From a phage: a DNA stretch of 64,000 nucleotides. Location of the stretch: the NCBI GenBank assembly GCA_025829515.1, contig GCA_025829515.1_4865.1; one strand, 5' to 3'. Within the stretch, counting starts at the first letter, position 1. Every line of letters starts with the position of its first letter. A program made the translations under genes and the position numbers. Below the pieces are notes generated by a model. It searched no databases. It was not told the origin of the DNA and saw only the letters and a list, made by a program, of their open reading frames with translations. Shown here piece by piece: positions 39,750-61,162 of the stretch.

Positions 39750-39760
39750 GGTGAAAACAG

Positions 39761-40240: not shown

Positions 40241-40252
40241 GTAGAGGAAAAT

Positions 40253-40441: not shown

Positions 40442-40450
40442 AATACGTAT

Positions 40451-40487
40451 TAGGGTGTCCATATGGACACCCTACTTATTTTTTTTG
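40451..40487 (+). terminator. rho-independent terminator
   Basis: tagggtgtccatatggacacccta hairpin + T-run. Confidence 0.65.
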
Positions 40488-40504
40488 TTTAAGGAGCTAT
40501 CAAA

Positions 40505-41461
40505 ATGGGCGAACGTTTCATTATCCAGATTCCGTATAACGTTATTGTTGAACCTAACCAGTACCTGGCACAGATTAATGAGCTTCTGGCTGGATTCTGC
40601 CAACGTCAGTTTGTTAAACCGTGGTCCTTTGAGAAACTGTACACCCTGTGCGTGAACAGTGAAACCGGTCACACTTACGTCGAAGGTAAAGTCTTCACAG
40701 GCGACCAGCGTTTGGAAATAAATGATTTCGAAATGCCGTGGACGTTGGAAGGTGTCGAGTATCGTGGTACGGTTGATCGCCCGCGTTACGTACCTTTGTA
40801 CACCATCCCACAATGTATTACTAACGTTATGGGTTGGTCTAAAGCGCGTGGTATTCTGGATAACGGCGTCTGGTATAGCCAAGCCACCAAACTCTACGAA
40901 GAAGACGGTGAAGCAGCAACCGGCATCAGCAAAACCAAAGAACGTCTTATCATGGACGGCCTAGGCGATGCAATGGTGGTACTGGTTAACGTCAACGCCT
41001 TGGTAGGTATGCCATCCAAGTTGGTTTCTGTCATGCTGTCCCGTGGGCGCGCACGTCTCGAAAAGAACGTTCCATTTGGCGATGCCCATCGCTTGTTCCA
41101 CAAAATGCGATTGGCCTTCACGTTGATGCACGATATTGTCTATCAAGGGGCCGATCGTCGTAACCAGCACCAGGGGACTTATCGTTTTACCGAGAGTGAC
41201 GACGATCTGATTATCGAATACGAAGAGCAGATGACCGTGGCACTCTATTACATGGAAGCACTGGCGCGAGCGTACAACATTACCCTGGAACAGTGCTTCT
41301 CACTGGCTTGGGATGAAATCAAAGACCGTAAGGGTTTCCTGAACGCGGACGGTATCTTCGTTAAAGAAGCAGACATGTCCGCTGCTGAAATCGAAGTAAA
41401 CGGTTCCCTTACTGTAAAAGATGAGGCGCTTACCGATGGCGAAGAAACTGTTCACGGTTGA
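40505..41461 (+). CDS. hypothetical protein (318 aa)
   Basis: AAGGAG RBS. Confidence 0.6.
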   Translation: MGERFIIQIPYNVIVEPNQYLAQINELLAGFCQRQFVKPWSFEKLYTLCVNSETGHTYVEGKVFTGDQRLEINDFEMPWTLEGVEYRGTVDRPRYVPLYTIPQCITNVMGWSKARGILDNGVWYSQATKLYEEDGEAATGISKTKERLIMDGLGDAMVVLVNVNALVGMPSKLVSVMLSRGRARLEKNVPFGDAHRLFHKMRLAFTLMHDIVYQGADRRNQHQGTYRFTESDDDLIIEYEEQMTVALYYMEALARAYNITLEQCFSLAWDEIKDRKGFLNADGIFVKEADMSAAEIEVNGSLTVKDEALTDGEETVHG

Positions 41462-41913: not shown

Positions 41914-42465
41914 TTACGCTTGAGTCATGTCGGAGATGTCATAAACCAGACCGTTCAACTCAGTAACGGTGATCAGTTTACTGATATCGACACCATCGCT
42001 CGGAACTTCGGTCAAATAAACTTCAACCGTACCCGTCCACGCCAGTGACTTTCCATTGAAACGCAAATTGTGTTTCGTGGAAGACGTCATTGACTCCGTC
42101 GCATAAATCTCGCTCGCATCAATCAACCAATTGTACTTGGCCTGTAACAACGGAACGAGGTCGGCGGCTGTATTGGCGCTACTACCGTCCACAGACAGCA
42201 CCACGTTTTCAAACAGGTGGGCTACGTCCAGTCGACGGTAAGTAAGACCCATCTTACCAAACGTACCTTTCTCAACGATACCAGAAACATCGAGACTGGT
42301 GTTCAGTCTGGTGTACTGTTCTGGGTCAGGATCGGCTGCGGTGATGTGCGACGGGTTACCGAACGACAATTTATCGATGGTCACGCCCTTACCAGTCAGT
42401 CCGGGATTCTGGGACACGATAAGATCGTAAACCAACTCTTTTGCGGTCTTTCCAAATAAACTCAT
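41914..42465 (-). CDS. hypothetical protein (183 aa), last gene of leftward giant-protein operon
   Basis: Minus-strand ORF directly downstream of 753-aa gene. Confidence 0.55.
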   Translation of the reverse strand: MSLFGKTAKELVYDLIVSQNPGLTGKGVTIDKLSFGNPSHITAADPDPEQYTRLNTSLDVSGIVEKGTFGKMGLTYRRLDVAHLFENVVLSVDGSSANTAADLVPLLQAKYNWLIDASEIYATESMTSSTKHNLRFNGKSLAWTGTVEVYLTEVPSDGVDISKLITVTELNGLVYDISDMTQA

Positions 42466-42487
42466 AATGCGCTACCTCTGTGGTGTA

Positions 42488-44749: not shown

Positions 44750-44758
44750 CCCCTACGA

Positions 44759-47700
44759 TTAGCTTGCTTTCCGACTTACGTTTAACGACGGTGTCGGTTG
44801 GGTTATTTCCTGCCTACGTGCAGCTGAGCCAGGAGGAGGCACATTTGCCGCTTGCTGGATACTACCACCCCGTGTGTCGTTTGCCGCTCTTGGATTTGAT
44901 TTCAAAATATCACGAATCTCTTTCAAGTAATCGCGAGACTGAATCAGTACCTTGAGCTGCTGAACATCTATCGGGTCACCATTCAGCGTTGGCGTCGATG
45001 CTGTAGCATCAGAAGTTGGAGCGGCAACTGGACGAGCTGCTGCGTTAACCTGCGCTTCCGCGCCTGCTTTCACTTTAGCAACATCCGTCGCAGACAATCC
45101 TTCTGCTGCAGCTTGCGACGCTACGGTTTCGGCCGTTGTTGAGGCATCGGATGTTCCGGTACCGCCTGTGGTTGGTGTAGGTGCTGCTGGTCCTACATTA
45201 CCTGCGGCGGTAGCCATTGCATCTTGTGCCGCCATGGCCCCTTTCTGCGTCAATACGTCATCACGACGATTAGCATTATCTGCTGGCAGGTTATCTGCCG
45301 GTGACAGACTCGGGTCATTAGCGGCCGGTGCACCCATTGCTGCTGCCGGGTTGGTTGGTGAATTAGGCGACAAGCCTGCAACCATATCCTTCGTCTTGCT
45401 CGGATCGGCAGCGACTTCGTTGGCGGAAATTGCACCCATGCGGCGGTTCAGTTCCTGAATAACCCCATCTACGCTACGTATACGACCGTTGCTGTAGAAG
45501 ACGTTGGCATTCCCTCTCAGTATTGCGGATGTAATCCCAGGAGCACTCGATGCCGCCATATTCGGATTACGCTTCCATGCTTCCAGGAATTTCTTACCGC
45601 CGCCTGCACCCAGGAAGTGGTACAGATAAGCCACGGCTGGAGGTGGTGCTTTACCACCCAGGTCACGTTGTGCTTTTTGGATGTTGTCACGAATGAACTG
45701 TACACCCAAAATAGCATTCGCCCACGGGTCCATCTGGTTAACACGCGGAATACCGAACTTCCGCGAATACCCCTTCATCATCCCGTCCCACGTACCGTTA
45801 ACAAACTGGAACAACCCAGACGCCGAAGCATACGGGTTTTTAGCGGTGTAGTTAAAACCAGACTCCGCTTTTGCCATTGCTAACGCCACAGCAGGTGGCA
45901 CGCCCATCATGTTCGCTGCATCGGTAATCAATGCTTTGATATTCGGAACGTTCAACGCACCCTTTCTACCCAACATTTCTATCGGGTATTTTTCAGCCAG
46001 TGACTTATAATCACCGTCTTTCACATCACTCAGGTTAATCGAAGACGAACCAGTGGTCATTGCAGCGTAGTTCCGCACACCGCCAACCGCATCGACGACT
46101 TGACCCAAGTTACCCGGCACACCACCACTCGTACCCGATGGAATGTAGCCTGAGGCGCGAGCACCGTCAGATGACAAAGAATCTCCCGAACTGATGTTCG
46201 AGTCTTCTTCATCTTCACCGGTAACTTCCAGAGAACTGCGGTTCTTGTTACGATCCTTCCAGCGTGCACGCTTGCCATTATTTTTAATGGCTTTAATCAT
46301 GTTACGCACGGCAAGGTCAGCTTCTTTTGACAACAGCTTCAGCGTTTCCAGCTCGGCTTTGATAGACGATGGGTTCGTGTTAGCATCGCCCCCTAATGGG
46401 TTGATATTCACTTCCCACACCGACTGTCTTATACCGCCTTTCAAGCTATAAGCTGTTGACATCATCAAACTGATTTCGTACAGGTAACCGCCGGTCAGTT
46501 TCAAGTTCAGCGGATCGGCTGTTGGCAGGTAGCGTTTCACCCCAACCAAATACGTCATGAATACCGGTAAGAAGCGGTCAAAGAACCACCGTTTCAAACG
46601 ATCTTCTTTCGGTGTGCCGATAGCGTCTGGAACCATCGAAGCGATGGCTTTCTTCCAGTCACCTTTATAACTTGCGGTTTTCACGTCGATGTCTTTGATG
46701 ACGTTCTTCTCGAATACCGTAATCAACGTGCGTGTGGCGTTGTCGATGGTGGTAAAACCATAAGTCTTCCAACGTACCGACTCCATCGCATTCATGTCTT
46801 TCTGGTCGAGCACCGCGTTCCAGTCTACCTGAATCTGAACCTGCTCTGTTCCGTCTTCCCAACCTTCTACCTTCGCCAGATTTTTATTACGTTCGTTATC
46901 CAACTGTCCAAGTTTGTTGATAGCTTCATCAACACCCGCGGACTTAATCCCCTCCACGGCCGGTGCCATTCCGTACTTACGTGCTTTCTTATCGTCCATT
47001 CTGAACTTGATTGCACGCTCGACTTCATTCTGCACTTCCATAACCTCTTCACCGCTCAAAAACTCCTTCGGTGTAAAGGTTACAACGTCCCAGGCTTTCG
47101 AGAAGAAGCCTTGGTTGACTTTGCGTGGGTCTGTTAACGAAGAGAACGCTTTTGCATCCTTAGTCATCTTCATTTTGTTGAAGAGTGTCTGCATGTCCTC
47201 TTTCGATACTTTCTTAGCATCGCCGACGTCAGCCAACTGGATACTATTCGGCATTGATTTCAGTGCCGTAATCCAGCGGAGATAAATCGGAATAAAGCGC
47301 TGAAGCATAAACGCTTGGAAGGCCAACATCTCGCCTTTTTCCTCAACGTTAATACCGAACCCTTCAGCTAACTTCTGAACGTCTTTTCCACCTAGCCCAC
47401 GGAGACTGGCTTGGCCATCTTCCGCGTAAGACACATACTCACGCAATGCGTCTTCTAAGTAACGCGCCTTCGCCCCGTCATCCGACGACCACTTATCGTA
47501 ATCACGGAAACCGTACTGAGCTAAACGCATCTTATCCAGGTACTGGGTATAGGTAGTCGTTGCGATCTTGTACGCGGCGTAACCTGCCGCGGCGATCGCA
47601 CCACCGATAAGAATTGCCGGCCAGCCCACTGCTGTCACGACGGCAGATGCCGCAGTTGCCACAGCGGACACCGCGGGTGCCGCCAAACGGGTTACTGCGA

Positions 47701-50700
47701 ACTTACCAACATTCCACGCAGCCTTACCTAAAAGACCTACGGGTTTTAACACACCCCATTTCGTGATAGAACCGAGTATATTACCCACAGTTCCCAAGAT
47801 ACTGACGATGGGACCGATGATAGGTAAGCCTTTCACCACATCCCACAGACCGCCAGATTTCCCTTTGGAGCCCTGCGCTTTCTCTTTCTTCTCCTTACGT
47901 TTCTCACGCCAACGTTTGAAGAAGTTAAAGTAGTCGCGTTTTTCATCACCTTCAGGTGGCTTGTTACGTTTACCGAACTTCGCAAACATGGTACGGATGA
48001 TGCCATCGTCACCGCCTGCGCGGGATACTGATTCGCGCATGGTGTTAAACCACGACATCTCTTGCAAGCCAATCATTCGGTCCAAGCGTTCAAACAATCT
48101 TGCACCTGCAGATTTGGCAGCGTTCTTCCCTTTGTTGATAACCCGACCTGCTGCATCGCGCGCGGTCTCAAGGTCGTCCTTCGCGTCACCGTAGACTTTA
48201 CGGCCAGAAAGACCACCTTTCGCGTTCAGATGACTGCGATAGAATTCAGCGACATCATCATCGCGTCCTGCCAATCGACGTTCAACTTCGTAGCGTGTGG
48301 CAATGTCGTGTCGTGCTCCACGATATCCGTCGAGCATATCCCCAGCCCGGCCTCGGAAACCACTGAACCAACCACGCAGGCGGTCGCGTCCACGACCAAA
48401 GAACGCTTTTGTTCTTGACCAACGTCCACCAAAACGTTCAGACAACGACGATTTCGCACGATCATACGCCCCGCGTACTGCACGACCGATCGTACTACCG
48501 CCACCCCCGACACCCTTCTCCATTTCCTCTGTCCAACTTTCGTCTTCCGGATCTCCCGGTAAACGTTGATTCAACAGTTTATAGATACGGATAAGAATGT
48601 GGTTGGTTTTCTTGCCGGTTGATGAGAAGATACTGAAACCGCCACCCCCACCATCTTTACGACCTTTCCACCAACGCGTTAGTGGGTTGTCGGTAATCAT
48701 GTCTTTCAGACGATCGACACCACGTTTCGCAAAACCGAGCACTTTACCCGGTAAGCTCGTTACGCGGTTGAACGCTTTCTGGAGACGTGTCTTTTCTTCG
48801 CCTTCCGGAATCTCGTTCAGCCAGTCCTTAATCTTACCAACGATGCTGCCCGCTTTCGGTGACAGGAAATCCAGGAACCTTTTCGGTAGCTTAGCCACCT
48901 TATTAAAGCCTAAGCCGATCTTACTGGCCAGACCTTGGGTCAGCGCTTGGATTTTCCCACCTTTATAGTAGCGGAGTTTACCGGCAGCGGCTAAGTCAGC
49001 GGCCGCTAGTACCAGGTTACCTGCGGAGTCAACAATATCACTCCCCAGTTTGATATCGTCCAGCGTTTTCAACTGAACCATTTTACCATCAATGACCTGA
49101 TAGTATTCCCCAGCTTCCAGACGTGCACCTTGTAGAACAACGTTACCGTGGTCATCGTAAACATCGCGGATACCCAGTAGTCCTTTACCGAAGGAACTTA
49201 CCGCTTCAAAACCACCACGGACACTACCACTGATAAGGCCACGCATCCGGGTTAAGAAACCAGGACCTTCGCCACCTCCCATGCCTGCGACTTTACCGCG
49301 TGCCCAACCACCGAACTGGTTCAGTTTATTCCAGGCACCCTTAACACCACGTTTCGCAAAGCCGCCGATTCCTGCTGCGGTGTCGAACAACACACCGCCC
49401 CAACGACGAATAAGCCCATCCTCACCGATGATAATACGACGGCGTCTACCGCCACCGCTACCACCGCCAGGGCGAGGCGGACCCATTTCTTCATCACCAG
49501 AACCAGCACCCCCTGCTAACGAAGCCAGGAGAACCCCTTCTTCGTCCATACTTCTGACGTGTTCCAGAATTTTCTGGAGGGTGTCACTGTTGTTGTTACC
49601 CCGAATCGCTTCGATGATACCGTCAAAGTTATTCCGTGGTGCTTCTTCGCCACGGTTACGTTGACTCAACAATTCAACAAAGTTAGTCGAAGTTTCACCG
49701 TAGAGAACTGCGGCTAGCTGCCGAGGCGACATTCCGCGGCCTTTACCACCGCCACGTAAAGCCGGCGGCAACGACGTGTCATCGGCACCACCACTTGCCC
49801 CTTGGTTCATTCGGCGCAGATAGTCGCCTAACGCCGAACCATTTTGCAGCTTACGTTGAATCTCCTGGTCACGAGTCAATGCACGCCCGCTGCGTGTCTT
49901 ACCCATTGCCAAGTCATTAAACAAGGTATAGGGATCGGACAGGTCTTTATCCACGCCGAAGGTGTCACTCTTCGCGTCGTAGTTAAAGATACCCGCATCA
50001 CGCAACGCTCGCTCGCCGTAAATATTCACCGCCTCGTCGATAATTGCCTGACGTTGGGTGATAGATGACTGCACTGTGGAGATTTTGCGAGCCAGTTCGT
50101 TACTTAATTCGTTGCTACCACCAGTAAGACTGTCTGAATGCCCCTGTAACGCTTCCTTAATGCGTTCTGCGGCGTTTCCTGGCATATACCGATGAAGATG
50201 CATCGGGTCTTTCAGAATCGCTTCTACGTCGAATGCGCGGCCCTGCGAGGCACGTGACTCGATATAGTCGGCAAGATGCTGTCGATCCTTCTGCGAGAGC
50301 GTTTTGCCACGGTCAACAAAATCCACAGTGCTGTTAATGGAATTTTGGAGACGCAGGCGCTGCTCATCGTTTGCAACCGCTTTGCGTACACGGTTACCGA
50401 CCACTTTGCGGTCCACGAAACCACGACTGGTGATGTCGTATTCCAGATCGGCATGTTCGCCATAGCCACGACGAACAGATTTGTTAATCTCTGCCAGCCA
50501 GGCAGGAATAACTTCAACCAGGCTAAGATACGCTTTACGGTCAAACTTCGCCGAGCGACTTAACGTTTCGCCATTACGCTCATCAAGGAAGGCTTTCTCA
50601 CGGTTTAACGGTTGGACAATACCGAGTTCATTCAGTACCCGGAACAAATCCGCCAACGGTCCTTGCGTTTCGCCTGCGATAGCTGAGTTCGAGATAGAGG

Positions 50701-51880
50701 AAAGATTACCAAAGGTGAACGCGCCCTTCTGCAGGCGTTTCATGACCTCTGGATTTTTCTCCATCTCCTCACGAGTCCATTTCTGGAGTTTCTCGATTTG
50801 TGGGCCGAGTAGTTTCTTCGCAAGGAATCCGCTACCCCATGCAGTTGCTTTATCGCGAGCATTTGTTTTGCGACGTTCGGCAGTCAACGAAGAGCTGTCG
50901 CTCATGCCGAAACCGTCTTCAACACCCATGCCGAGAACAGACTCTAACAAACCACGACCTTCGCCAAATATACCAGAAATTTTCTTCTTGGTATTTTCGC
51001 GAATCATGTCCATAAACCCGTCAGCATAACGCAATGGGTTCATCCATTCCGCAGCCTGGCGTTTAACGTTTGCCCAACGGACTTCTGAGAAATCTTCCTT
51101 CGCGTAGTCTGGCAGCGCCGTGTTCTTCACGATGGCTTCTAAAGCAGGCGTGTTACGATCGAACTCCGACTGCTTCATCTTCACGATGTCTTGAATGGCG
51201 AACAGGGTACGGTATTGCAATTCGAGTTTCTTACGCTCGATGTTTAAGAATACCCCACGGCTTAACCCGGTTAGCAGGTTAATGTCTTTCGCCATCCCAA
51301 TCATGGTTTGGTGCATTGCATCCGCGCGCATCTCTTTGATGCTGTCGCGGAGCTTATCCTCTACCATGCGGTCCTGCAGCTGACGTTGTTCGTCGGCGTC
51401 CTTTGGCACGCCTGAGAAAACGTCGCCCAGTTCACGATCCATCAACGCCTGATTAGGATCGTAATTTTGGTAATCCAACTGGTCAGATTTTGACCACTTG
51501 TCGAAGCGCTTAGTAACTGCATCCGGCAAGTATTTCTTCATCGTCGGACCGAGTTGGCGTGCTTGCATCTTCAGCGTGCGCTCGGTCTTCTCAAGCTCCC
51601 CTTTCGTATGGGCGTAAATGTCCTTTGCTGCAGCTGCCGCTGACTGATAGCCCTCGTATGCATCAGCTGCCGGCTTAGGCATCCCCTTGAGGATAACTTG
51701 GTCACGTTTCCCTTCTGGCCAGATAGTTGACAACGCCGACTTCCTGGCAACATTCAGGGTACTGAGTATCGGGCTTCGTTTTTTCTCGTCTTTGGGACGG
51801 GGTGGTTCACCGAAATCATCCCAGTCGTCGAGTCTATCTAAATCGATATCATCGAAACCGTCTTTGCCTCTTTTTGCCAT
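44759..51880 (-). CDS. giant virion-associated protein with internal lytic transglycosylase (SLT) domain (2373 aa)
   Basis: Uninterrupted 7.1-kb ORF; SLT motifs AESGFN...SGLFQF...YLYHFLGAGG at residues ~2005-2130; Gly-rich stretches; Ala/Thr-rich low-complexity C-terminus. Confidence 0.85.
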   Translation of the reverse strand: MAKRGKDGFDDIDLDRLDDWDDFGEPPRPKDEKKRSPILSTLNVARKSALSTIWPEGKRDQVILKGMPKPAADAYEGYQSAAAAAKDIYAHTKGELEKTERTLKMQARQLGPTMKKYLPDAVTKRFDKWSKSDQLDYQNYDPNQALMDRELGDVFSGVPKDADEQRQLQDRMVEDKLRDSIKEMRADAMHQTMIGMAKDINLLTGLSRGVFLNIERKKLELQYRTLFAIQDIVKMKQSEFDRNTPALEAIVKNTALPDYAKEDFSEVRWANVKRQAAEWMNPLRYADGFMDMIRENTKKKISGIFGEGRGLLESVLGMGVEDGFGMSDSSSLTAERRKTNARDKATAWGSGFLAKKLLGPQIEKLQKWTREEMEKNPEVMKRLQKGAFTFGNLSSISNSAIAGETQGPLADLFRVLNELGIVQPLNREKAFLDERNGETLSRSAKFDRKAYLSLVEVIPAWLAEINKSVRRGYGEHADLEYDITSRGFVDRKVVGNRVRKAVANDEQRLRLQNSINSTVDFVDRGKTLSQKDRQHLADYIESRASQGRAFDVEAILKDPMHLHRYMPGNAAERIKEALQGHSDSLTGGSNELSNELARKISTVQSSITQRQAIIDEAVNIYGERALRDAGIFNYDAKSDTFGVDKDLSDPYTLFNDLAMGKTRSGRALTRDQEIQRKLQNGSALGDYLRRMNQGASGGADDTSLPPALRGGGKGRGMSPRQLAAVLYGETSTNFVELLSQRNRGEEAPRNNFDGIIEAIRGNNNSDTLQKILEHVRSMDEEGVLLASLAGGAGSGDEEMGPPRPGGGSGGGRRRRIIIGEDGLIRRWGGVLFDTAAGIGGFAKRGVKGAWNKLNQFGGWARGKVAGMGGGEGPGFLTRMRGLISGSVRGGFEAVSSFGKGLLGIRDVYDDHGNVVLQGARLEAGEYYQVIDGKMVQLKTLDDIKLGSDIVDSAGNLVLAAADLAAAGKLRYYKGGKIQALTQGLASKIGLGFNKVAKLPKRFLDFLSPKAGSIVGKIKDWLNEIPEGEEKTRLQKAFNRVTSLPGKVLGFAKRGVDRLKDMITDNPLTRWWKGRKDGGGGGFSIFSSTGKKTNHILIRIYKLLNQRLPGDPEDESWTEEMEKGVGGGGSTIGRAVRGAYDRAKSSLSERFGGRWSRTKAFFGRGRDRLRGWFSGFRGRAGDMLDGYRGARHDIATRYEVERRLAGRDDDVAEFYRSHLNAKGGLSGRKVYGDAKDDLETARDAAGRVINKGKNAAKSAGARLFERLDRMIGLQEMSWFNTMRESVSRAGGDDGIIRTMFAKFGKRNKPPEGDEKRDYFNFFKRWREKRKEKKEKAQGSKGKSGGLWDVVKGLPIIGPIVSILGTVGNILGSITKWGVLKPVGLLGKAAWNVGKFAVTRLAAPAVSAVATAASAVVTAVGWPAILIGGAIAAAGYAAYKIATTTYTQYLDKMRLAQYGFRDYDKWSSDDGAKARYLEDALREYVSYAEDGQASLRGLGGKDVQKLAEGFGINVEEKGEMLAFQAFMLQRFIPIYLRWITALKSMPNSIQLADVGDAKKVSKEDMQTLFNKMKMTKDAKAFSSLTDPRKVNQGFFSKAWDVVTFTPKEFLSGEEVMEVQNEVERAIKFRMDDKKARKYGMAPAVEGIKSAGVDEAINKLGQLDNERNKNLAKVEGWEDGTEQVQIQVDWNAVLDQKDMNAMESVRWKTYGFTTIDNATRTLITVFEKNVIKDIDVKTASYKGDWKKAIASMVPDAIGTPKEDRLKRWFFDRFLPVFMTYLVGVKRYLPTADPLNLKLTGGYLYEISLMMSTAYSLKGGIRQSVWEVNINPLGGDANTNPSSIKAELETLKLLSKEADLAVRNMIKAIKNNGKRARWKDRNKNRSSLEVTGEDEEDSNISSGDSLSSDGARASGYIPSGTSGGVPGNLGQVVDAVGGVRNYAAMTTGSSSINLSDVKDGDYKSLAEKYPIEMLGRKGALNVPNIKALITDAANMMGVPPAVALAMAKAESGFNYTAKNPYASASGLFQFVNGTWDGMMKGYSRKFGIPRVNQMDPWANAILGVQFIRDNIQKAQRDLGGKAPPPAVAYLYHFLGAGGGKKFLEAWKRNPNMAASSAPGITSAILRGNANVFYSNGRIRSVDGVIQELNRRMGAISANEVAADPSKTKDMVAGLSPNSPTNPAAAMGAPAANDPSLSPADNLPADNANRRDDVLTQKGAMAAQDAMATAAGNVGPAAPTPTTGGTGTSDASTTAETVASQAAAEGLSATDVAKVKAGAEAQVNAAARPVAAPTSDATASTPTLNGDPIDVQQLKVLIQSRDYLKEIRDILKSNPRAANDTRGGSIQQAANVPPPGSAARRQEITQPTPSLNVSRKAS
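45460..45900 (-). other. SLT (lytic transglycosylase) domain within giant protein
   Basis: Catalytic Glu of AESGFN encoded at 45863-45865 (minus strand); GLFQ and AYxxG-like motifs downstream. Confidence 0.7.
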
Positions 51881-51910
51881 AATGTTTCTTCCAATTCAGG
51901 AGCCTAAAAA

Positions 51911-53524
51911 GTGAGAAAGCTTAACTGGGTAGATTTTTATCTACTGAACGTTAATAAGTCCCTGGTGTCGCATTTAAAACCAGTTACAACAACAGACACC
52001 TTTCAGGGACTGACGAAAAACTTTCACCCTGAAGGACTGTATTCAACCGAAATTTTTGGCCTCACAGGGAGCGAAGCACGAGACTCAACGTTCTCGTACA
52101 TTGATATCAAACTGGATATCATTTCGCCGACCGTTTGTTTGGCATTGTTCCAGCTGAAACAGCTGTACGAAGAAATCTGTTCCGGGAAGCGATTCGCTAT
52201 CTGGAATGAGAAAGAAAAAGATTTCGAGCCGGCTCTGCCCAGTGATAAAGGTGCAGACACCGGCTTCAACTTCTTCCTACGCTACTACGAACAACTGACA
52301 CCGGGACGCAACGAATCGATGCGTCGCGACGAGACAGTCGATTTCTTCAATAAGTTCCGTCCGGTCAGTCTCAGCCGCTATGTGCTGGTTCTGCCTGCGG
52401 GATTACGTGATTTGGTCATTCGTCAGGATGGCCGCGACCAAGAAGAAGAGATTGGCGGACTCTACCGCCGTCTGATTTCTCTGGCACGTGCAATCCCCGA
52501 CCGCAGTACGCGAACGGAACTGACTGACCCGGTTCGCTGGAAGCTCCAACAAACCTTTAATGATATCTGGATGTACTTCTTCAACATCCAAGACGGTAAA
52601 GGTGGTTTTGCACGTCGTAAAGTGACGTCACGTAAGTTAATGAACGGTACGCGTAACGTACTGTCTTCATTCTCAACCGGTTCCAAGGTCATGGGTCGCG
52701 AAGATGCGATTCGTCCAACGGATACCCGTATCGGTTTGTACCAAACCCTGAAGGCATTACTGCCTGTGGCTCAATACCACATCCGCGAACGTTACCTCAG
52801 TAACATCCGGGCAGGGGACGGCAACTTATACGGCGTTAACACCAAAACACTCAAGCGTGAGTTCCTGGAAGTCTCCGGGCGGGTGTATGACCTTTTCACT
52901 ACCGACGATGGCATCGAAACACTCATCAACAGAATGGAAGCGCGCGAGCTTCGACATAAACCGCTGATGATTGATCCGGACCATTACGTGGCATTAATCT
53001 ACCAGGACAAACGCAGCTTCAAAATCTTCTACGATATTGAAGACCTGCCGGAAGGACGTGACCGTAAGCTTGTCCGCGGACTGAGCTTAGCGGAACTCCT
53101 CTATTTGTCAGGTTACGATATTTGGAATGACTACTTCTCGTTCATCACGCGTTATCCGGTTACGGGACGCGGTTCGACTTACTCCTCGACCATAAGATTG
53201 GAGACCACCACCTCTTCCCTCTATTTGCATGAACTGGAAGACGATTGGGTCACGTTAAAAGAGAAGGGAGCAATTAGCTTCCCTGACCGTACCGTGAAAA
53301 CCTTTGTGGAATCCATGGCACCACATCCATCCCGATTAGGTGGGTTGGGTGGTGACTACGATGGCGACACCGGCTCAGCAAACAGCCCGATGTCAACCGA
53401 AGCGCTCGAGGAAAATCGGAAGTGGGTCAGTTCGAAAAACTACTGGTTTGCAACAGACGGCAGTTTCAAAATCAATCCGGTTAACAACGTGATTAAAAGA
53501 ACGACTGCTGCGCTGTTGAAATGA
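51911..53524 (+). CDS. multisubunit RNA polymerase beta'-like subunit, N-terminal fragment (537 aa)
   Basis: NFHPEGLYSTEIFG, VLPAGLRDLVIRQDGRD...GGLYRRLISLARAI, GKGGFARRKV and DYDGD parallel E. coli RpoC FKPERDGLFCARIFGP, VLPPDLRPLVPLDGGR...DLYRRVINRNNRL, GKQGRFRQNLLGKRV and NADFDGD (from memory). Confidence 0.8.
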   Translation: MRKLNWVDFYLLNVNKSLVSHLKPVTTTDTFQGLTKNFHPEGLYSTEIFGLTGSEARDSTFSYIDIKLDIISPTVCLALFQLKQLYEEICSGKRFAIWNEKEKDFEPALPSDKGADTGFNFFLRYYEQLTPGRNESMRRDETVDFFNKFRPVSLSRYVLVLPAGLRDLVIRQDGRDQEEEIGGLYRRLISLARAIPDRSTRTELTDPVRWKLQQTFNDIWMYFFNIQDGKGGFARRKVTSRKLMNGTRNVLSSFSTGSKVMGREDAIRPTDTRIGLYQTLKALLPVAQYHIRERYLSNIRAGDGNLYGVNTKTLKREFLEVSGRVYDLFTTDDGIETLINRMEARELRHKPLMIDPDHYVALIYQDKRSFKIFYDIEDLPEGRDRKLVRGLSLAELLYLSGYDIWNDYFSFITRYPVTGRGSTYSSTIRLETTTSSLYLHELEDDWVTLKEKGAISFPDRTVKTFVESMAPHPSRLGGLGGDYDGDTGSANSPMSTEALEENRKWVSSKNYWFATDGSFKINPVNNVIKRTTAALLK

Positions 53525-53542
53525 TACCCATAAGGCACATGT

Positions 53543-56500
53543 ATGATTTTTCTGAAACAGTTTAACCAGCGCTTTACCGTGCGCAAGACCGATGAGTTCG
53601 GTCGTCCGCGTATTATCCCGCTGGAGAAGCTCCAGCTCCCACGTGGTTCTATCTACCACACCATCGATTTAGACCAGGTGGTTTTAGCGCCACCGTTAAC
53701 TACACCGTGTTTTGGCCAGCTGGAAAAACCGGCGATGATTCGCCACCACTTCCAGCTGCCTGAAGACGGCATTATTGGCCATCCGCGTAAGAAACCGGTT
53801 GTTGGTCAAGAGCGCCAAATCTTCCAGTACCATCGTAACAACCGTCGTATTCGTCGCATGATTGAAGACGGCGTGGTACGTTCCGATCCGAAAGTGCTGC
53901 TCATCGAAAACTACACCCCGATGCTGCCGCATTATTTCTACCCTGATACTCTGATGTCCTGGTACGAACGTCTGCACAACATTCAGCTGCTGATAACTAA
54001 CCAGATGAAAACTGACTCACGTGAGTACATGCGTCAGAACTACTACATCATCGAACTGGGTAACGTACTGCCTTCTTTCGATCGTTTTAAAATGACGTAT
54101 AACGATCGTGTTAAAACCAAACTGGAGCGCTTTAAAGACTTTAACCTGCTGTGGTTACTGGAGTTGTTCGGTTGGGTGTACGGAGATCAGCAAGCAACAC
54201 TGTTTGACGGTATGGACATGAACCAGCTGTCACGTGTGAACTTTATCTTCACACACAACGGTGGTTTTACATCCATGAACATGGGTGTAATTGAAAGAAT
54301 GCGTAAGTCTGCCGGTGGTCGTTTGACTGACGTGCAGATGGGCAGAATGTTCTACCGTACACTGACTACGGTGATGACCACACCGCCGTCTACCGACTAC
54401 GAAGATGACGAGTTCGTTACACCGGAAGGGGATGAACGCGTACATCTGGGAGAGGACGACGATGCTGTTGAAACCGTTGCCAGTAAACCGGAAGAAAGCC
54501 TCGATATCGTCGACGATGAAGCAACACAAAGCGACAACGTTGACGATACACTGAACGATCATGAGTTCGATGAGAAAGAAGATCTGGTCATCGAAGCGCC
54601 GAAAGAAGATGTCAAACCAACCACCATCGTCGTAGAACGCACCATCCCACACGATGCTGTGATTAAACAGGAAGTTGAGCGCCTGGCAGAAGCGGGCCGC
54701 GTCACCGCCAAAGCGTATCAGTTCCTGAACGAATCTTCTAAACGTTTCGTAAACTTACCCAACCCGTACAATCCTAAAGAGACGTACGGCGAAGGTCTGA
54801 CCATCGATCCGAAGAAACTCGAAGTTAAAGCCGAGCCTAAGAAGATTGAACGCTTAGTTACGGATGAAGCCTGGGCGGAAAATACCACCGACCAAATCAT
54901 TCGTCAGTACAACCAGGAAATCTTCCCGAAAGATATTCTGGGGGCAGTAGCGTCATCCCAACGTCTTGGTTTAGCGATTCACAATCACACTGTTGAGAAA
55001 GAGATTTCCGTTACCGGGAATATCGAACACCACACGTTGCGTATTCAGCCGATTGGCGGAGAACCAACCACGGTACGTTTCTCAATTCCTGCATTAACCG
55101 AAGACGGTACTTGGGTTGCAAATGGTGTGGAATATACAATGCGTCGTCAGCGTGTTGATCTTCCTATCCGTAAAGTGTCCCACGATACTGTAGCGTTAAC
55201 CACTGCCTACGGGAAGAACTTTGTCCGTCGCAGTGATAAAGTCGTCAATGATTACGGACGTTGGCTCACTAACGCGATTATTACTCGCGCGGTCGATCCA
55301 AAGAACACCGAAATCACTGATGCAAAACTGGCGAATGTGTTCGATCCGCTGTCTAAACTGCCGCGCCAATATACCGAAGTGGCGCGTCGTGTAGCAGCGT
55401 TCAACGCAATTGGGTACCAATGGAGCTTTGACATTAAACAGAAAGCGGCATTCTTTAACGAAGGGCAACTGGCAGACGCGGACCGTGTCGAGCTGGTACC
55501 TGTGGCGAAGAAACCGCGGAGCCATGTCATCGTCGGTATGGATAAAAACTCCCAGCTTTATCGAGTGGATAAGGATAAGACCGAACCACTGGGTACACTC
55601 GCCGAGGTCTTTGGCGTGGACACCTCTAAGGCTCCACGTGAAATGACCGAACTGTCACTGATGGGCAAATCAATCTCGCTGGGCTTTGTGTTTGCGTACT
55701 ATCTCGGATTAACCGGGATGTTGAAACACTTTGGTATCAGTTACGAGGTTCTCTCTGTCGGACAACGTATCGATAAAGGTCAGTTCGACTCCATTATTCG
55801 TCTCCAGGATGCGAAAATTGCAATTGTCTGCGAGAACGATCAACAGAGGATGATTGTCAACGGCTTAGACCGTTACATTAAACACTTTACCACGTATACC
55901 GAGTCGGAAGTTGACCGGGAAGACATTTATCTGAACCTGTTACGCGATGCAGATGGGCTAACACCACGCTACATCAAAGAGCTGAAACTGATGCGGACCG
56001 CATTTGTTGACGACATGCACGCGCGTATCCTCAGGAAAATGGGCGAGCCGGAAACCTTTATCGGCTTACTGGAGCGTTCTAACGAACTGCTGCAGACGGA
56101 CCACACGTTACCGGAAATTAACGGTGACGAAATGATGTTCATCGGGAACCAACGTATTTCGTATCACATCTACACCGCGATGGTGCGGGCGATGCGTAAC
56201 TACAACAACGCGCCTAACTCGAATCGTAAGTTTGAGTTGACGCAGGACATGGTGTGGGGTGCAATTAACTCCGACCCGTCTGTTCTGCTGGCACCTGGCG
56301 CAAACCCGGTACAGAACATCAAAGAAAAGGATGTCGTTACCATGGGCGGTACAGGCGGTCGTAACCGCAAAACCATGGTATACAGTACCCGTGAATTCCA
56401 ACCGAGCGACCTGGGGATTGTCTCCGGTAACACGGTCGATAACGGCGACGTAGGTATCACCGCCTTTGCAACAAACAATCCGCGTTACGACACCGTGGAC

Positions 56501-57745
56501 GGCACGACCTTTAAAAAGGACCTCGATAAACTGAAGCCAGGTGAGGCACTGTCATTTATTGATGGCTTAGTGCCGGATACCCTGATGGACGATGCTAAGC
56601 GTCAGAACTTCGTTGGGATTCAATTCGGTTCTGCGACCAGTTGTGTTGGCGCAACCACCACACCGTATCGTACCGAGCAAGAAAAGTTCGTGGCACACCG
56701 TACTTCTGTGAAGCACGCACGCGTAATCGATAAACCTGGCAAGATTGTGGAGGTTCTTAACGACCACGTTAAAATCAAATACGACGGAGAGGAAGAAGCT
56801 TTCCCACTGGGCCGTTGGTTCGGTCCGCACGAAGGGACTTACTACCCACACACCCTGGTAACGAAATGGAAGCGCGGAGATAAACTCCCTGCCGGTGCCG
56901 TTATCACGTACAACGAACAACACTTTGAACCAGACATCTACGATCCAACGCAGGTCAGCTTTAAAAACGGGATACTGGCAACTGTCGCTTTGATTGAAGG
57001 GGAAGAAGTAATTGAGGACTCCAACGCCATTAGTGAGCGGTTCGCTGCTAAGGCTGAAGCCGATGTTACCAAACTCAAAGAAGTCACAATGACGTTTACC
57101 CAGAACCTGTTGGAGATGGTAAAAGAAGGGGACCACGTAGACGTGGATTCAATTCTATGCACCTTCACCGACAACCTGACCGGCGATATGAGCGGGTTCA
57201 GTAAAGAAGCAGCGGAAACGCTGCGTGAGTTAAGCTCCTTTGCACCACGCTCTGGTGTTCGTGGGTTTATCGACAAAATCGAAGTGGTTTACCACGGCGA
57301 GGTGGAAGATATGACCCCGTCTTTGGCGGAGATGGTTCGTAAATACGACCGTATACGTCGGAAGACTGCGCTGGCTCTCAAACGTGACGAGCCGAAGGAC
57401 GGTCGAGTCAACGGTGATTTTCGTGTTGAGGGGGTGCCGTTAGCGTACAATAGCCTGTGTGTCCGATTCTACATCACACACCGGGTAGAGATGGCAGCAG
57501 CGGATAAGATGGTTATTGCTAACCAGCTGAAAACGACGGTTCAGGAAGTGATGTATGGAACCAACAAAACGGAAGACGGGCAGGAACTCGACATTATCTT
57601 TGGTCGTGATTCCGTCGACGCACGTATCGTAGGTTCTATCATGCGCATCGGAACCACCAACGCTGTCGGGTATCGTGGTGGGGAGAATATCGGACGCATC
57701 TTAGATGGTGAAGACGTCCCAGCCTTGCCGGCTAAAATCAACTAA
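53543..57745 (+). CDS. multisubunit RNA polymerase beta-like subunit (1400 aa), lacking extreme C-terminal beta region
   Basis: GTWVANGVEYT, REFQPSDLGIVSGNTVDNGDVGITAF, ADKMVIANQLKTTV and EDGQELDIIFGRDSVDARIVGSIM parallel RpoB [46 protein letters not shown] and [25 protein letters not shown] (from memory). Confidence 0.7.
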   Translation: MIFLKQFNQRFTVRKTDEFGRPRIIPLEKLQLPRGSIYHTIDLDQVVLAPPLTTPCFGQLEKPAMIRHHFQLPEDGIIGHPRKKPVVGQERQIFQYHRNNRRIRRMIEDGVVRSDPKVLLIENYTPMLPHYFYPDTLMSWYERLHNIQLLITNQMKTDSREYMRQNYYIIELGNVLPSFDRFKMTYNDRVKTKLERFKDFNLLWLLELFGWVYGDQQATLFDGMDMNQLSRVNFIFTHNGGFTSMNMGVIERMRKSAGGRLTDVQMGRMFYRTLTTVMTTPPSTDYEDDEFVTPEGDERVHLGEDDDAVETVASKPEESLDIVDDEATQSDNVDDTLNDHEFDEKEDLVIEAPKEDVKPTTIVVERTIPHDAVIKQEVERLAEAGRVTAKAYQFLNESSKRFVNLPNPYNPKETYGEGLTIDPKKLEVKAEPKKIERLVTDEAWAENTTDQIIRQYNQEIFPKDILGAVASSQRLGLAIHNHTVEKEISVTGNIEHHTLRIQPIGGEPTTVRFSIPALTEDGTWVANGVEYTMRRQRVDLPIRKVSHDTVALTTAYGKNFVRRSDKVVNDYGRWLTNAIITRAVDPKNTEITDAKLANVFDPLSKLPRQYTEVARRVAAFNAIGYQWSFDIKQKAAFFNEGQLADADRVELVPVAKKPRSHVIVGMDKNSQLYRVDKDKTEPLGTLAEVFGVDTSKAPREMTELSLMGKSISLGFVFAYYLGLTGMLKHFGISYEVLSVGQRIDKGQFDSIIRLQDAKIAIVCENDQQRMIVNGLDRYIKHFTTYTESEVDREDIYLNLLRDADGLTPRYIKELKLMRTAFVDDMHARILRKMGEPETFIGLLERSNELLQTDHTLPEINGDEMMFIGNQRISYHIYTAMVRAMRNYNNAPNSNRKFELTQDMVWGAINSDPSVLLAPGANPVQNIKEKDVVTMGGTGGRNRKTMVYSTREFQPSDLGIVSGNTVDNGDVGITAFATNNPRYDTVDGTTFKKDLDKLKPGEALSFIDGLVPDTLMDDAKRQNFVGIQFGSATSCVGATTTPYRTEQEKFVAHRTSVKHARVIDKPGKIVEVLNDHVKIKYDGEEEAFPLGRWFGPHEGTYYPHTLVTKWKRGDKLPAGAVITYNEQHFEPDIYDPTQVSFKNGILATVALIEGEEVIEDSNAISERFAAKAEADVTKLKEVTMTFTQNLLEMVKEGDHVDVDSILCTFTDNLTGDMSGFSKEAAETLRELSSFAPRSGVRGFIDKIEVVYHGEVEDMTPSLAEMVRKYDRIRRKTALALKRDEPKDGRVNGDFRVEGVPLAYNSLCVRFYITHRVEMAAADKMVIANQLKTTVQEVMYGTNKTEDGQELDIIFGRDSVDARIVGSIMRIGTTNAVGYRGGENIGRILDGEDVPALPAKIN

Positions 57746-57792
57746 TGTAGGGCGGGTCGCTCCCGCCCGGTAAATAAACTCCGGAGTTAATA

Positions 57793-58086
57793 ATGGGAAT
57801 TTTAGATACGCTCAAGCAGCAGCATGGGATTCCGGTGGGCCGTAATAGCACGAATCCGGAAACGGAAGGTTATTCCCCACAGCAACGCATGAACTTTGTT
57901 GTTCTGGGCAATGCGGTTGAATTGGCCACCGAAATTATTCACGGACTGCTGAAGGGCAGCAATGGCCTGTCTGACCGCATGGGCGATCAGCGTTTGCTGA
58001 AACGAGACATCGCTGATATGGTGGGTGCGCGTATTACTGGTCGCATCCAGGATTCTATCAGCACCAAAAACGGGGGTCAGGCATGA
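57793..58086 (+). CDS. hypothetical protein (97 aa)
   Basis: GGAG RBS. Confidence 0.5.
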   Translation: MGILDTLKQQHGIPVGRNSTNPETEGYSPQQRMNFVVLGNAVELATEIIHGLLKGSNGLSDRMGDQRLLKRDIADMVGARITGRIQDSISTKNGGQA

Positions 58087-59558
58087 TCAACTTATATTCA
58101 CTTAATGCTGTCACCAACGCAATGAAACTGGCGAAACAACACCAGGTTCGTTTGGAAGCTGACGTTGACAGTCCTGTTGGTCTACTGACAAAAGCGACTA
58201 CGCAGCAGAGCGTTTTCGATACGCAGATAACCGACGAAGAGTTCTTCCAGTCTCTGCCGGATATCACTGCACTGAAAACGCCGCAGGCCGGTACAGGCGA
58301 AGCGTCTGTAATCGCGGACACGGCAGCGGGTCCAGAAACGCTGAACGTCGAAGACCACGAACCGACACTGTTCGAACTGAAGCGTATGGCTATCCAGCGT
58401 TGTCAGGGTATGCTTGACTTTGCCCGTAACGTTATTCAGCCGTTTGTTCAACTGGTTATCCAAAACAACCAGGGTATTGAAAACCAGGCAGTTAGCGAAG
58501 AATGGGCACTTGTGCCTGCAGGTATGGACCCGGCGCTGAACTCCCCGGTGGTACAGGCATTAATTGATTCGGTAGAAAACCCGCTGGGCAATGGTACTAC
58601 GCACCCTGCAGTTAAAGCCAACGTCCCTGCTGATATCGAACTGCCAGAAACCGGCAGCAAAGCATACGACGATCTGGTTAAAGAACTGTTGAATGCGCTG
58701 GGTTGGAACATCAACGAAGCCGTTCGCAACATGCTCGAAGGGAACATGCTCTCTCCGGTAAGCGACCAGGCACCACACAACCTGAAACGCAACATTCTGT
58801 TTATGCTGCTTTCTGGCTACTACCTGGAAATGCCGTGGAAAGACTCTGGTCTGAATAGCGGGCAGTGGAAAGCACAGATGCTGCCATTGCATTACAGCTA
58901 TATCGGTTGGGTTTACGCCTACACCCAGAACATCGTTACCCGCATCAAGACCGGTAACATTGTCTTCGGATACGACAACGTTGAGAAGAAAGTGTATATC
59001 TGTCAGGAAGTGATGGACGACTATCTGGAAAAAGGCGGTAGCGTTGAAGCGTTACTGGGCGCTATTTACCAGCTGGACGAAGGTGACACCAATGTCTCCA
59101 CGCGTGTAGCTTCACTGTTGGAAAAACAGAAAGACTACATCGCTGCCTGGGGCCACCGTTCTGCGATTCAGCGTGCTAAGCTCGACAGCAATTGGGTAAC
59201 ACGCAATCGCCAGTCACTGAAACAAGCGTTTAACGTGGCCATCGATGCAACCGATCCTGAACTGTTCTGGCGTGGACAGGACGGTCAGGTAGCAACGCCG
59301 GAGTTCGTTAAGAAATCAACGGCAAGCTTCATCGATTCGTTCTTCACAACCGACACCACAGACATCACTGAGTTCGTTATCAAAGTCTCCGCGACTGAGG
59401 TCTTCGGCGAATACGAACTGTCCAAGCTGATGCTGGATATTCATCGTGGCATGATTGCTAACCGTCAACCTGACGAGGTGGCAACCGACTGGATGATTAA
59501 CTACGTCCTGGATTGGATTTGTGGCGGTGTGGTTATTTCTGTACCGAGCAAAGTTTAA
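58083..59558 (+). CDS. hypothetical protein (491 aa)
   Basis: ATGA overlap; long ORF. Confidence 0.6.
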   Translation: MINLYSLNAVTNAMKLAKQHQVRLEADVDSPVGLLTKATTQQSVFDTQITDEEFFQSLPDITALKTPQAGTGEASVIADTAAGPETLNVEDHEPTLFELKRMAIQRCQGMLDFARNVIQPFVQLVIQNNQGIENQAVSEEWALVPAGMDPALNSPVVQALIDSVENPLGNGTTHPAVKANVPADIELPETGSKAYDDLVKELLNALGWNINEAVRNMLEGNMLSPVSDQAPHNLKRNILFMLLSGYYLEMPWKDSGLNSGQWKAQMLPLHYSYIGWVYAYTQNIVTRIKTGNIVFGYDNVEKKVYICQEVMDDYLEKGGSVEALLGAIYQLDEGDTNVSTRVASLLEKQKDYIAAWGHRSAIQRAKLDSNWVTRNRQSLKQAFNVAIDATDPELFWRGQDGQVATPEFVKKSTASFIDSFFTTDTTDITEFVIKVSATEVFGEYELSKLMLDIHRGMIANRQPDEVATDWMINYVLDWICGGVVISVPSKV

Positions 59559-59567
59559 TAAAGAGAG

Positions 59568-60296
59568 GTGGTCGTGAGCGCCATTGAAACAGCACGTCGT
59601 GACGCGACGAAAATTCATGCAGATTTAGTGGACCAAGGCACGGCCACCATCACCAAAGGGGGATGTTATATTTACATCCCTGTTGGCTTCGTGGCTAAAG
59701 AGCTGGCGGTAATTTCTTCGCAAGTCGAAATCGTCGGCATTTTCGCTATCTCCACTGACCGCAAAACCTACGGGGTATCGAACGTCACGACGTTCATTGA
59801 AATTACCCCGTCGGCGTTTGAGGAAATTGATGTTCAGGGCGTGCCGTATTACGAGTTCCGTTTTGACCCCGGCACGGTGGTGTTCCCCAACCGAATGCTG
59901 CAAGTGCTCTCCTCGCCAGTCTACAACATCGCTTCGTACATCTACGACTTCGGAAACCGGCCTTTCTGGTACACCGCAGTAGATGACGCTGAGCTATTGT
60001 CTGACACTAAGACGTGGAACGGCTTTACGGTCTTTAACGACCAGATCACCGCTGACTGTTATGCTGCCCACACACAGCGTAAGGTTGGCGACCCGCGGAC
60101 GTATTTCCGCTACACCCTGAAAAAAGACAGCGATTTGATGAATCGGGTGCGGTTTATTCCGCTGCGTTCAGGTTCATTGAACAAAACTTCCCGGTTGGCC
60201 AAGATTGCAGATGTGGAACTGAAACAGGGTATCCGTTCTGCACTCCAGGTCGATCCGGTACGTGCAGAGCCACTCGAGGATTTGTATATGAGGTAA
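59568..60296 (+). CDS. hypothetical protein (242 aa)
   Basis: AGAGAGG RBS; GTG start at 59568 or 59574. Confidence 0.55.
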   Translation: MVVSAIETARRDATKIHADLVDQGTATITKGGCYIYIPVGFVAKELAVISSQVEIVGIFAISTDRKTYGVSNVTTFIEITPSAFEEIDVQGVPYYEFRFDPGTVVFPNRMLQVLSSPVYNIASYIYDFGNRPFWYTAVDDAELLSDTKTWNGFTVFNDQITADCYAAHTQRKVGDPRTYFRYTLKKDSDLMNRVRFIPLRSGSLNKTSRLAKIADVELKQGIRSALQVDPVRAEPLEDLYMR

Positions 60297-60358: not shown

Positions 60359-61162
60359 ATGGAAAACTTGTCACTACGTTATAACTGCGTGGCACTCGCT
60401 GGGGTCAATAAAGGGGCAACGCTAAAGAAAGATGCGGACGGGTATTACTACGTCCTGTTAGGTGCACTGAATATTTTCAACTCTGAGAATATTTACTACG
60501 CCTATAACGAGTCAAAACATGTCTTCGAGCGCTCTAACGTTTTCATGCGTAAAGTTTTAGCGGGGAATCTCTTCGGTGAAGAAGACCATCCGCAATACGA
60601 ACAAGGCATGAGCGAAGCCCAGTGGATCGAACGTAACGAATGGATCGAAACGCGTAACGTGTGTATGCACATTCGCGAAGTAGAAGTGAAGCCGACCGAC
60701 CAGATGTGTAACGGTCTGCCGGTGATGGAAATTTGGGGTTGGATTAAACCTAACCGTGAACGTGGTCCGCTTCTGGCGGAAGCACTAGAGAACCCACATC
60801 AGAACGTGTGTTTCTCACTGCGTGCTATCGTTCGCGAAGGTCGTCTGGGTACGACTATCGTACGCCGTATCGATAAACTGGTCACCTTTGACTGGGTTAT
60901 TGAAGATGGCCTGCAAATCTGTAACAAATACTCTGCGATTCAACGCGGTAGTAAAGTGGCACAGGAATCTACTCGCACTTACGTCGACCGCCCTATCAGT
61001 CGTCAAGTGTTGGAAGACATTCTGTACAATCCGACAACGACCAGCGCTGTTGCCACTGAGTCCCGTCGTGGTGCTCTCCAGCAACTCGCGCAGGAATACC
61101 TGCAGCTGGCTCCGAAAGTGTCCAATCTGCGGGTAATGGGCATGGGTGTAAGGAGCTGGTAA
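60359..61162 (+). CDS. hypothetical protein (267 aa)
   Basis: ORF. Confidence 0.55.
   Translation: MENLSLRYNCVALAGVNKGATLKKDADGYYYVLLGALNIFNSENIYYAYNESKHVFERSNVFMRKVLAGNLFGEEDHPQYEQGMSEAQWIERNEWIETRNVCMHIREVEVKPTDQMCNGLPVMEIWGWIKPNRERGPLLAEALENPHQNVCFSLRAIVREGRLGTTIVRRIDKLVTFDWVIEDGLQICNKYSAIQRGSKVAQESTRTYVDRPISRQVLEDILYNPTTTSAVATESRRGALQQLAQEYLQLAPKVSNLRVMGMGVRSW

Follow-up and report, generated by a model that had tools for sequence, protein, structure and literature searches.

The window analysed here is a stretch of 64,000 nucleotides of phage DNA (contig GCA_025829515.1_4865.1 of assembly GCA_025829515.1), in which two adjacent open reading frames (ORFs) encode proteins resembling incomplete beta' and beta subunits of cellular RNA polymerase (RNAP). 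The locus raises the question of which enzyme the two proteins belong to and where its remaining parts are encoded. We hold with high confidence that the ORFs at 51911-53524 (plus strand, GTG start, 537 amino acids) and 53543-57745 (plus strand, ATG start, 1400 amino acids) encode the beta'N and betaN subunits of a phage virion RNA polymerase (vRNAP) of the SPN3US/phiKZ type; they are the homologs of gp240 and gp241 of Salmonella phage SPN3US, and of gp180 and gp178 of phage phiKZ, respectively. The start codon of the second gene lies 19 nucleotides past the last base of the stop codon of the first. The initial annotation had listed both ORFs with this spacing, together with a series of RNAP motifs, and all of these are present.

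In a megablast search the 5.8-kilobase (kb) stretch matched 63 phage records. More than 30 jumbo phages of Salmonella, Escherichia and Proteus, including SPN3US (JN641803, genus Seoulvirus), show 98-99% identity over the full 5.8 kb. Judged by these matches, the window is DNA of an SPN3US-like Salmonella jumbo phage of the genus Seoulvirus, related to phiKZ, and the phiKZ-type affiliation proposed initially is borne out, with identical synteny. The SPN3US gene numbers are used below also for the proteins of the window, which are 99.8% (gp240), 98.9% (gp241), 99.5% (gp218), 98.8% (gp244) and 100% (gp245) identical to their SPN3US counterparts. In the SPN3US records, SPN3US_0240 and SPN3US_0241 carry the name 'putative DNA-directed RNA polymerase beta subunit', with the numbers 4 and 5, respectively.

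The vRNAP of SPN3US consists of five polypeptides, namely gp241 (betaN), gp218 (betaC, 222 amino acids), gp240 (beta'N), gp42 (beta'M, 431 amino acids) and gp244 (candidate beta'C, 240 amino acids) (PMC5105663, PMC5694885). This published system has the same proteins, gene order and neighbours as the window, and the differences are at the strain level only (gp241 has 1400 residues in the window and 1401 in SPN3US, and the ORF call of gp244 starts two codons earlier). The present analysis establishes this enzyme's homology and catalytic residues, the points at which it is split, and its synteny.

The fragments gp240 and gp241

The 537-residue gp240 belongs to phrog_2986 of PHROGs ('RNA polymerase beta subunit', E = 3e-238). 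A profile built from a 32-sequence alignment (37-90% identity) matched, among PDB sequences, beta'N of phage AR9's non-virion RNA polymerase (nvRNAP; E = 5.5e-12), plastid RpoC1 and cyanobacterial gamma (~1e-10), and bacterial beta' (~1e-7; 2.8e-7 for E. coli beta'). Two segments were aligned by hhalign with E. coli RpoC and a 68-sequence cellular beta' profile. Residues 140-253 correspond to E. coli beta' 218-357 with 92.6% probability, pairing VLPAGLRDLV with VLPPDLRPLV, GGLYRRLI with NDLYRRVI, and GKGGFARRKV..GTRNV with GKQGRFRQNL..SGRSV, and residues 434-529 correspond to 397-508 (E = 7.7e-5). The catalytic Mg-binding motif DYDGD (residues 482-486; 53354-53368, plus strand) is located in the second segment, with D482, D484 and D486 opposite D460, D462 and D464 of E. 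coli beta'. Across the 32 homologs D482 is invariant, while D484, G485 and D486 are at least 90% conserved; the consensus is ADFDGD, so that DFDGD of the family is DYDGD in the window protein.

A lid/rudder-like stretch had also been read in this protein. The lid and the clamp core are indeed covered by the alignment, whereas the rudder is apparently shortened, as gp240 carries a 17-residue gap opposite the E. coli rudder region. The C-terminus falls roughly at beta' residue 515, about 30-50 residues past the catalytic loop.

The AlphaFold model of gp240 has a mean confidence (predicted local distance difference test) of 80. When it was compared with the PDB in Foldseek, the top 50 matches out of 50 were beta' or gamma chains (probability 1.00, ~550-680 alignment columns), the presence of the double-psi beta-barrel being judged here by the overall fold match. 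The best match is AR9 nvRNAP beta'N (7s01_d, E = 4.7e-14), followed by the naturally split cyanobacterial gamma and plastid RpoC1 (~1e-11). As far as alignments and a predicted fold can tell, gp240 is a beta' N-terminal fragment; profile search, hhalign and Foldseek agree on this. By hhalign, DYDGD is at the position of the cellular NADFDGD. Both points had been proposed in the initial annotation.

The 1400-residue gp241 is a member of phrog_3148 (E = 0), annotated 'RNA polymerase beta subunit'. Its profile (24 sequences) matched Thermus beta among PDB sequences (E = 2.6e-11) in four colinear blocks, i.e. PLMTxxGxFxxNG, the fork/rifampicin region, the LIPFLEHDDANR-to-flap block, and the GDK..NKG active-site block, in line with the four beta-type blocks in canonical order noted earlier. 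The profile searches are thus significant for both proteins, with AR9 beta'N and cellular beta' for gp240 and with beta for gp241. In the hhalign comparison with a 65-sequence beta profile (proteobacterial rpoB genes), residues 918-1387 fall on E. coli beta 516-1132 (E = 4.3e-11, 97.2% probability) and residues 514-578 on 126-187 (E = 0.01). The active-site block ADKMVIANQLK (residues 1320-1330; 57500-57532, plus strand) is aligned with the K1065/K1073 block of E. coli beta, and D1321, K1322, Q1328 and K1330 are invariant in the 24 homologs. The protein stops before the GGQRFGEME region (about 1265-1285 in E. coli beta), ~200 residues short of the end of beta. By these alignments gp241 is a beta homolog without roughly the last 200 residues, as had been proposed from the lack of that motif.

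The first part of gp241 is of a different kind: its initial ~390-500 residues are unmatched by beta, a feature that had gone unmentioned in the initial annotation. About 390 N-terminal residues (53543-54712, plus strand) show no detectable beta homology, and in profile searches residues 1 to about 390 matched neither beta nor Pfam nor PDB sequences. The extension is nevertheless kept in the vRNAP betaN of 201phi2-1, OBP, Ea35-70 and other distant jumbo phages. It includes an acidic low-complexity linker (residues 281-360; 54383-54622, plus strand; 39% D+E by composition). A role in head targeting has been proposed for the extension, and the betaN homolog of 201phi2-1 is cleaved at TFE-275, while SPN3US gp241 is not processed by the gp245 protease (PMC5105663, PMC5694885). 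The TFE-275 site of 201phi2-1 is near the position of the acidic linker of gp241.

Several further observations concern gp241 and its family. At the positions of the rifampicin pocket (residues 917-939; 56291-56359) hhalign shows the substitutions D516 to P, H526 to E and S531 to T relative to E. coli beta; as sequence changes, they are consistent with the rifampicin-insensitive infection of this phage group. Homologs were found in 316 jumbo-phage records for gp241 and 308 for gp218, among phages of Pseudomonas, Erwinia, Vibrio, Serratia, Aeromonas, Klebsiella and Ralstonia. In Serratia Totoro, Pectobacterium ParM-25 and Pseudomonas MIZ-Pa99 the gp241 homolog was recovered as three pieces, and Totoro and ParM-25 have an annotated HNH endonuclease lying between them, which suggests intron or homing-endonuclease interruptions in these two phages; in the window the gene is uninterrupted. 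Proteins of several Salmonella SPFM phages (P0101-P0104, P0155-P0158, P0192-P0198) gave high HMMER scores with a BLAST query coverage of only 3-35%, suggesting frameshifted or otherwise corrupted gene models.

The remaining pieces of beta and beta'

In the initial annotation the beta' gene was taken to be split once, past the catalytic loop, and both C-terminal partners were expected outside the window, in a layout possibly unlike that of phiKZ. As far as beta is concerned, this is refuted. The region of beta from GGQRFGEME to TLQEML, which is outside gp241, is found in a separate ORF, the gp218 gene (28989-29657, plus strand, 222 amino acids; homolog of phiKZ gp149), 22 kb upstream of gp240 and gp241 in the same window. 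The gene was placed by SPN3US synteny, and its product belongs to phrog_3233 ('RNA polymerase beta subunit', E = 9e-94).

The alignment of gp218 with beta required both a cellular beta profile and a widened gp218 family. A narrower profile, compared with the cellular beta profile of 65 proteobacterial rpoB genes, aligned residues 13-182 with beta 1139-1309 (E = 0.0022). After addition of 13 divergent homologs (from phiKZ-like, OBP-like, EL-like, Vibrio, Ralstonia and other phages), the resulting 35-sequence profile placed residues 12-183 on E. coli beta 1138-1310 (E = 7.3e-6, 84% probability), with GVSFPEAY...STLQEF opposite GQRFGEMEV...YTLQEM. An alignment of the gp218 profile with the single E. 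coli RpoB sequence was spurious and was discarded. The gp218 profile had no match among PDB sequences, no RNAP family was reached in Pfam-A, and the structure-based tests and fold searches were weak and non-significant. Since the alignment of gp218 begins six residues past the end of that of gp241 (beta 1132), the two proteins tile beta without overlap. On this basis, gp218 is assigned the C-terminal clamp region of beta (GGQRFGEME...TLQEML), and gp241 and gp218 together account by alignment for all of beta, its conserved active-site lysines included.

In the case of beta', the only piece outside the window is gp42 (39365-40660 in SPN3US). Residues 261-390 of gp42 correspond to beta' 754-905, with the bridge helix and the zinc site DCGT...C...CxxC (E = 0.0035, hhalign). 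Since the coverage by gp42 is limited to about beta' 510-940, at least three pieces make up beta', not two as had been supposed; three are also described in the literature (PMC5105663). Taken together, gp240 and gp42 end near beta' residue 940.

The published candidate for the rest, beta'C, is gp244 (homolog of phiKZ gp176), and its gene is again in the window, at 59568-60296 (plus strand, 242 amino acids by ORF). Two in-frame GTG codons, at 59568 and 59574, would give 242 or 240 residues, and the GenBank entry of SPN3US takes the second. The protein belongs to phrog_2926 ('virion structural protein'), and its family comprises 460 clusters in a search of 1.84 billion representative proteins, with nearly all members about 240 residues long. 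That gp244 is a vRNAP subunit is well supported genetically. As beta'C it remains a candidate, because this published assignment found no sequence-profile support in the present comparisons: a profile of 121 sequences from the 460 clusters gave no alignment with the cellular beta' profile (proteobacterial only), either whole or restricted to residues 1130-1407, nor with gp35, the nvRNAP beta'C of SPN3US. It matched no RNAP chain among PDB sequences, and no RNAP family was reached in Pfam-A. The length argument for beta'C holds, given the end of gp240 plus gp42 near residue 940. The published homology evidence is an HHpred match with E = 0.05 (PMC5105663).

These results point to another possible, though rather unlikely, role, in which gp244 would be a lineage-specific subunit with no cellular counterpart and not the C-terminal piece of beta'. 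A deep profile unlike any beta' and unlike the phage's own nvRNAP beta'C, and a published HHpred value of only 0.05, speak in this direction. Such a subunit could serve, for example, in early-promoter recognition, assembly or head targeting, resembling in role the fifth subunit of the nvRNAP, and the vRNAP would then be without the last ~270 residues of beta'.

With gp218 and gp244 located in the window and gp42 in SPN3US, the search for the missing fragments has succeeded, except that gp244 shows no beta' homology by profile. It is understandable that gp218 and gp244 were missed when only the letters were read, because neither carries an RNAP name in the SPN3US record ('virion structural protein 22' and 'hypothetical protein', respectively), and these names are also what would favour partners lying elsewhere. 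We regard it as very unlikely that beta' is split only once with both partners outside the 64 kb: gp218 aligns with beta 1138-1310 and is in an RNAP family, gp244 is the genetically defined fifth subunit, and gp42 adds a third piece to beta'. The layout is also not unlike that of phiKZ, as the synteny with a phiKZ-type genome is identical; the only contrast is with the non-virion polymerase, the one whose structure has been solved.

Virion and non-virion polymerases

The assignment to the virion enzyme rests on synteny and on the published work on SPN3US and phiKZ. In the phiKZ-type genome PQ741806, the genes match those of the window in order and size: a giant tail-fibre gene on the opposite strand, two genes for 'RNAP beta subunit' of 551 and 1451 amino acids, a small ORF, an ORF of ~520 amino acids, a virion protein of ~240 amino acids, and the head maturation protease. 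The vRNAP of phiKZ itself, composed of gp180 (beta'N, with DFDGD), gp178 (betaN), gp149 (betaC), gp80 (beta'M) and gp176, has the same split architecture and local gene order. The sequences have diverged considerably. The gp218 homologs of phiKZ-like phages are 36% identical to that of the window, and in the case of gp241 the identity to phiKZ-type records is low (tblastn recovered only residues 4-255, at 21%).

All five SPN3US subunits were found by mass spectrometry in virions and in tailless heads, and in amber mutants of 218, 241 or 244 the virions lose all five (PMC5105663, PMC5694885); this loss implies that the complex assembles before its incorporation into the prohead. The products gp218, gp241 and gp244 are essential (PMC5694885). 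In phiKZ, the DFDGD subunit gp180 is present at about 10 copies per virion, co-precipitates gp178, gp80 and gp149, and enters the cell with the DNA, remaining outside the phage nucleus (PMC10612078). The vRNAP transcribes the early genes independently of the host RNAP; in the phiKZ type it is without homologs of alpha, omega and sigma, and early transcription is rifampicin-insensitive (PMC13282480).

Beside the gp244 comparisons described above, several points weigh against the vRNAP assignment. Pfam-A models gave no RNAP family for gp240 or gp241, and the Pfam-A searches of these two, gp218, gp244 and the N-terminal part of gp241 yielded only a sub-threshold match to Sgs1. A single-sequence phmmer search of PDB sequences was not significant for gp240 (best E = 0.69, plastid beta') and returned nothing relevant for gp241, so that the homology of both proteins is seen only with profiles; the weak plastid match of gp240 does sit at the expected VLPPELRP and NADFDGD positions. 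Compared with beta' chains, the gp240 model reaches TM-scores (template modelling scores) of 0.3-0.45, low values that are to be expected when a multidomain fragment is modelled on its own. Finally, we infer the virion location, assembly and activity of the window proteins from phiKZ and from SPN3US proteins of nearly the same sequence.

Among solved structures, beta'N of the nvRNAP of Bacillus phage AR9 (PDB 7S00/7S01, chain d) is closest to gp240 both by profile and by fold. Like gp240, it is a beta' fragment cut shortly past the catalytic loop. It differs from gp240 in belonging to a non-virion enzyme of a uracil-DNA phage, which is not packaged, and the two are ~14% identical (the crystal chains have 426-448 residues). 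The next-best matches, cyanobacterial gamma and plastid RpoC1, are likewise separately encoded N-terminal halves of beta' with NADFDGD, but they are split about 100 residues further downstream (chains of ~620-680 residues), the rest of beta' forms one polypeptide, and the enzymes include alpha, omega and sigma partners.

The rank of AR9 has a bearing on whether the two ORFs could instead be subunits of the second phage polymerase, the nvRNAP, which acts after infection on late genes. Both phage polymerases are split beta/beta' enzymes, and part of gp241 scores also against other PHROGs families of 'RNAP beta' (phrog_14872, E = 3e-86). The AR9 subunit ranks first for gp240, however, because the copy of the PDB that was searched turned up no vRNAP structure, so that the best profile matches of gp240 and gp241 are the AR9 nvRNAP and cellular RNAPs. 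The SPN3US counterparts of gp240 and gp241, with 99% identity, were detected in purified virions and tailless heads, the genes are in a conserved head-gene cluster by the prohead protease (Peptidase_S80) in phiKZ-type order, and SPN3US has its nvRNAP-type genes, gp34 and gp35, elsewhere in the genome. A non-virion enzyme is thus extremely unlikely and was rejected on the virion detection and the head-cluster synteny.

It is scarcely credible, finally, that the proteins are catalytically dead relics of an RNAP, left with no other role than that of structural or ejection proteins in the head, as their extreme divergence (about 12-14% identity to cellular subunits), the absence of Pfam matches, their packaging in the head and the change of the beta block RHGNKG to ANQLKT might suggest: this was rejected since 32 homologs, down to 37% identity, conserve the three catalytic aspartates, the beta lysines that correspond to K1065 and K1073 are both invariant, the bridge-helix/Zn block is kept in gp42, phiKZ-type infection does not depend on host RNAP, with the vRNAP driving early transcription (PMC13282480), and gp218, gp241 and gp244 are essential.

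The surrounding locus and the packaged enzyme

Upstream of gp240, on the minus strand, is the homolog of gp239 ('putative tail fibre protein' in SPN3US; 44759-51880, 2373 amino acids), which contains a lytic transglycosylase SLT domain at residues 1984-2072 (Pfam PF01464, E = 3.6e-9). The divergent starts of gp239 (ATG at 51880) and gp240 (GTG at 51911) are separated by 30 nucleotides (51881-51910), so the promoters of both genes must overlap coding sequence or each other. A Shine-Dalgarno sequence AGGAG read at 51898-51902 (plus strand), 8 nucleotides 5' of the GTG, supports the start of the 537-residue gp240, as in GenBank JN641803. A promoter scan found no sigma-70-like site between the two starts (51881-51910), and sigma-70 promoters and intrinsic terminators between 51.5 and 61.5 kb were not more frequent than in shuffled sequence, as expected for phages that use their own promoters. 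A perfect GC-rich hairpin, GGGCGGG-TCGCT-CCCGCCC, lies at 57750-57768, 5 nucleotides past the gp241 stop. It has no T run and was not among the outputs of the terminator scan; it may be a terminator of a phage RNAP or an RNA-stabilising element. Over the minus-strand genes at about 42000-52000 (the gp238 and gp239 homologs) the GC content rises from ~0.47 to 0.50-0.53 and the GC skew is negative, which is consistent with strand-specific composition and not with foreign DNA.

Between gp241 and gp244 are the homologs of gp242 (57793-58086, 97 amino acids, phrog_8223) and gp243 (58083-59558, 491 amino acids, phrog_3841, with no Pfam match), neither of which shows RNAP similarity; SPN3US gp243 is essential for the incorporation of ejection proteins (PMC5694885). 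Directly downstream of gp244 is the prohead protease gp245 (60359-61162; Peptidase_S80, E = 1e-84; phrog_3014). Farther away, the window encodes an SbcC-like nuclease subunit (8629-11139, phrog_77), an RNase H-like ribonuclease (21003-22517, phrog_3265) and, just upstream of gp218, a UvsX-like recombinase (27178-28671, phrog_97).

The five polypeptides would form a bacterial-type two-barrel RNAP in which beta and beta' are each encoded in separate pieces, gp241 and gp218 for beta, and gp240, gp42 and (according to the literature) gp244 for beta'. In this arrangement gp240 carries the Mg-chelating DxDGD loop together with switch 2 and the clamp/lid region. The protrusion/lobe, the fork/rifampicin region, the flap and the lysine-bearing active-site block come from gp241, behind its phage-specific N-terminal extension of ~390 residues, and the C-terminal clamp region of beta comes from gp218. 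Once assembled, the complex would enter the prohead at low copy number, be ejected with the DNA and transcribe the early genes.

Genetic and proteomic work has already described this enzyme, and the copy in the window is a strain-level variant and not a new polymerase. What the present analysis adds is a map that sets the split points against E. coli beta and beta' at the level of residues, the placing of two of the three missing partners in this same 64-kb stretch, and the observation that the beta'C assignment of gp244 is still without support from sequence-profile homology. The enzyme itself is notable as a bacterial-type RNAP in five polypeptides that is loaded into a capsid filled with DNA and injected by way of a tail tube of ~3 nm. 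As published for SPN3US and phiKZ, the packaged vRNAP frees the infection from host transcription.

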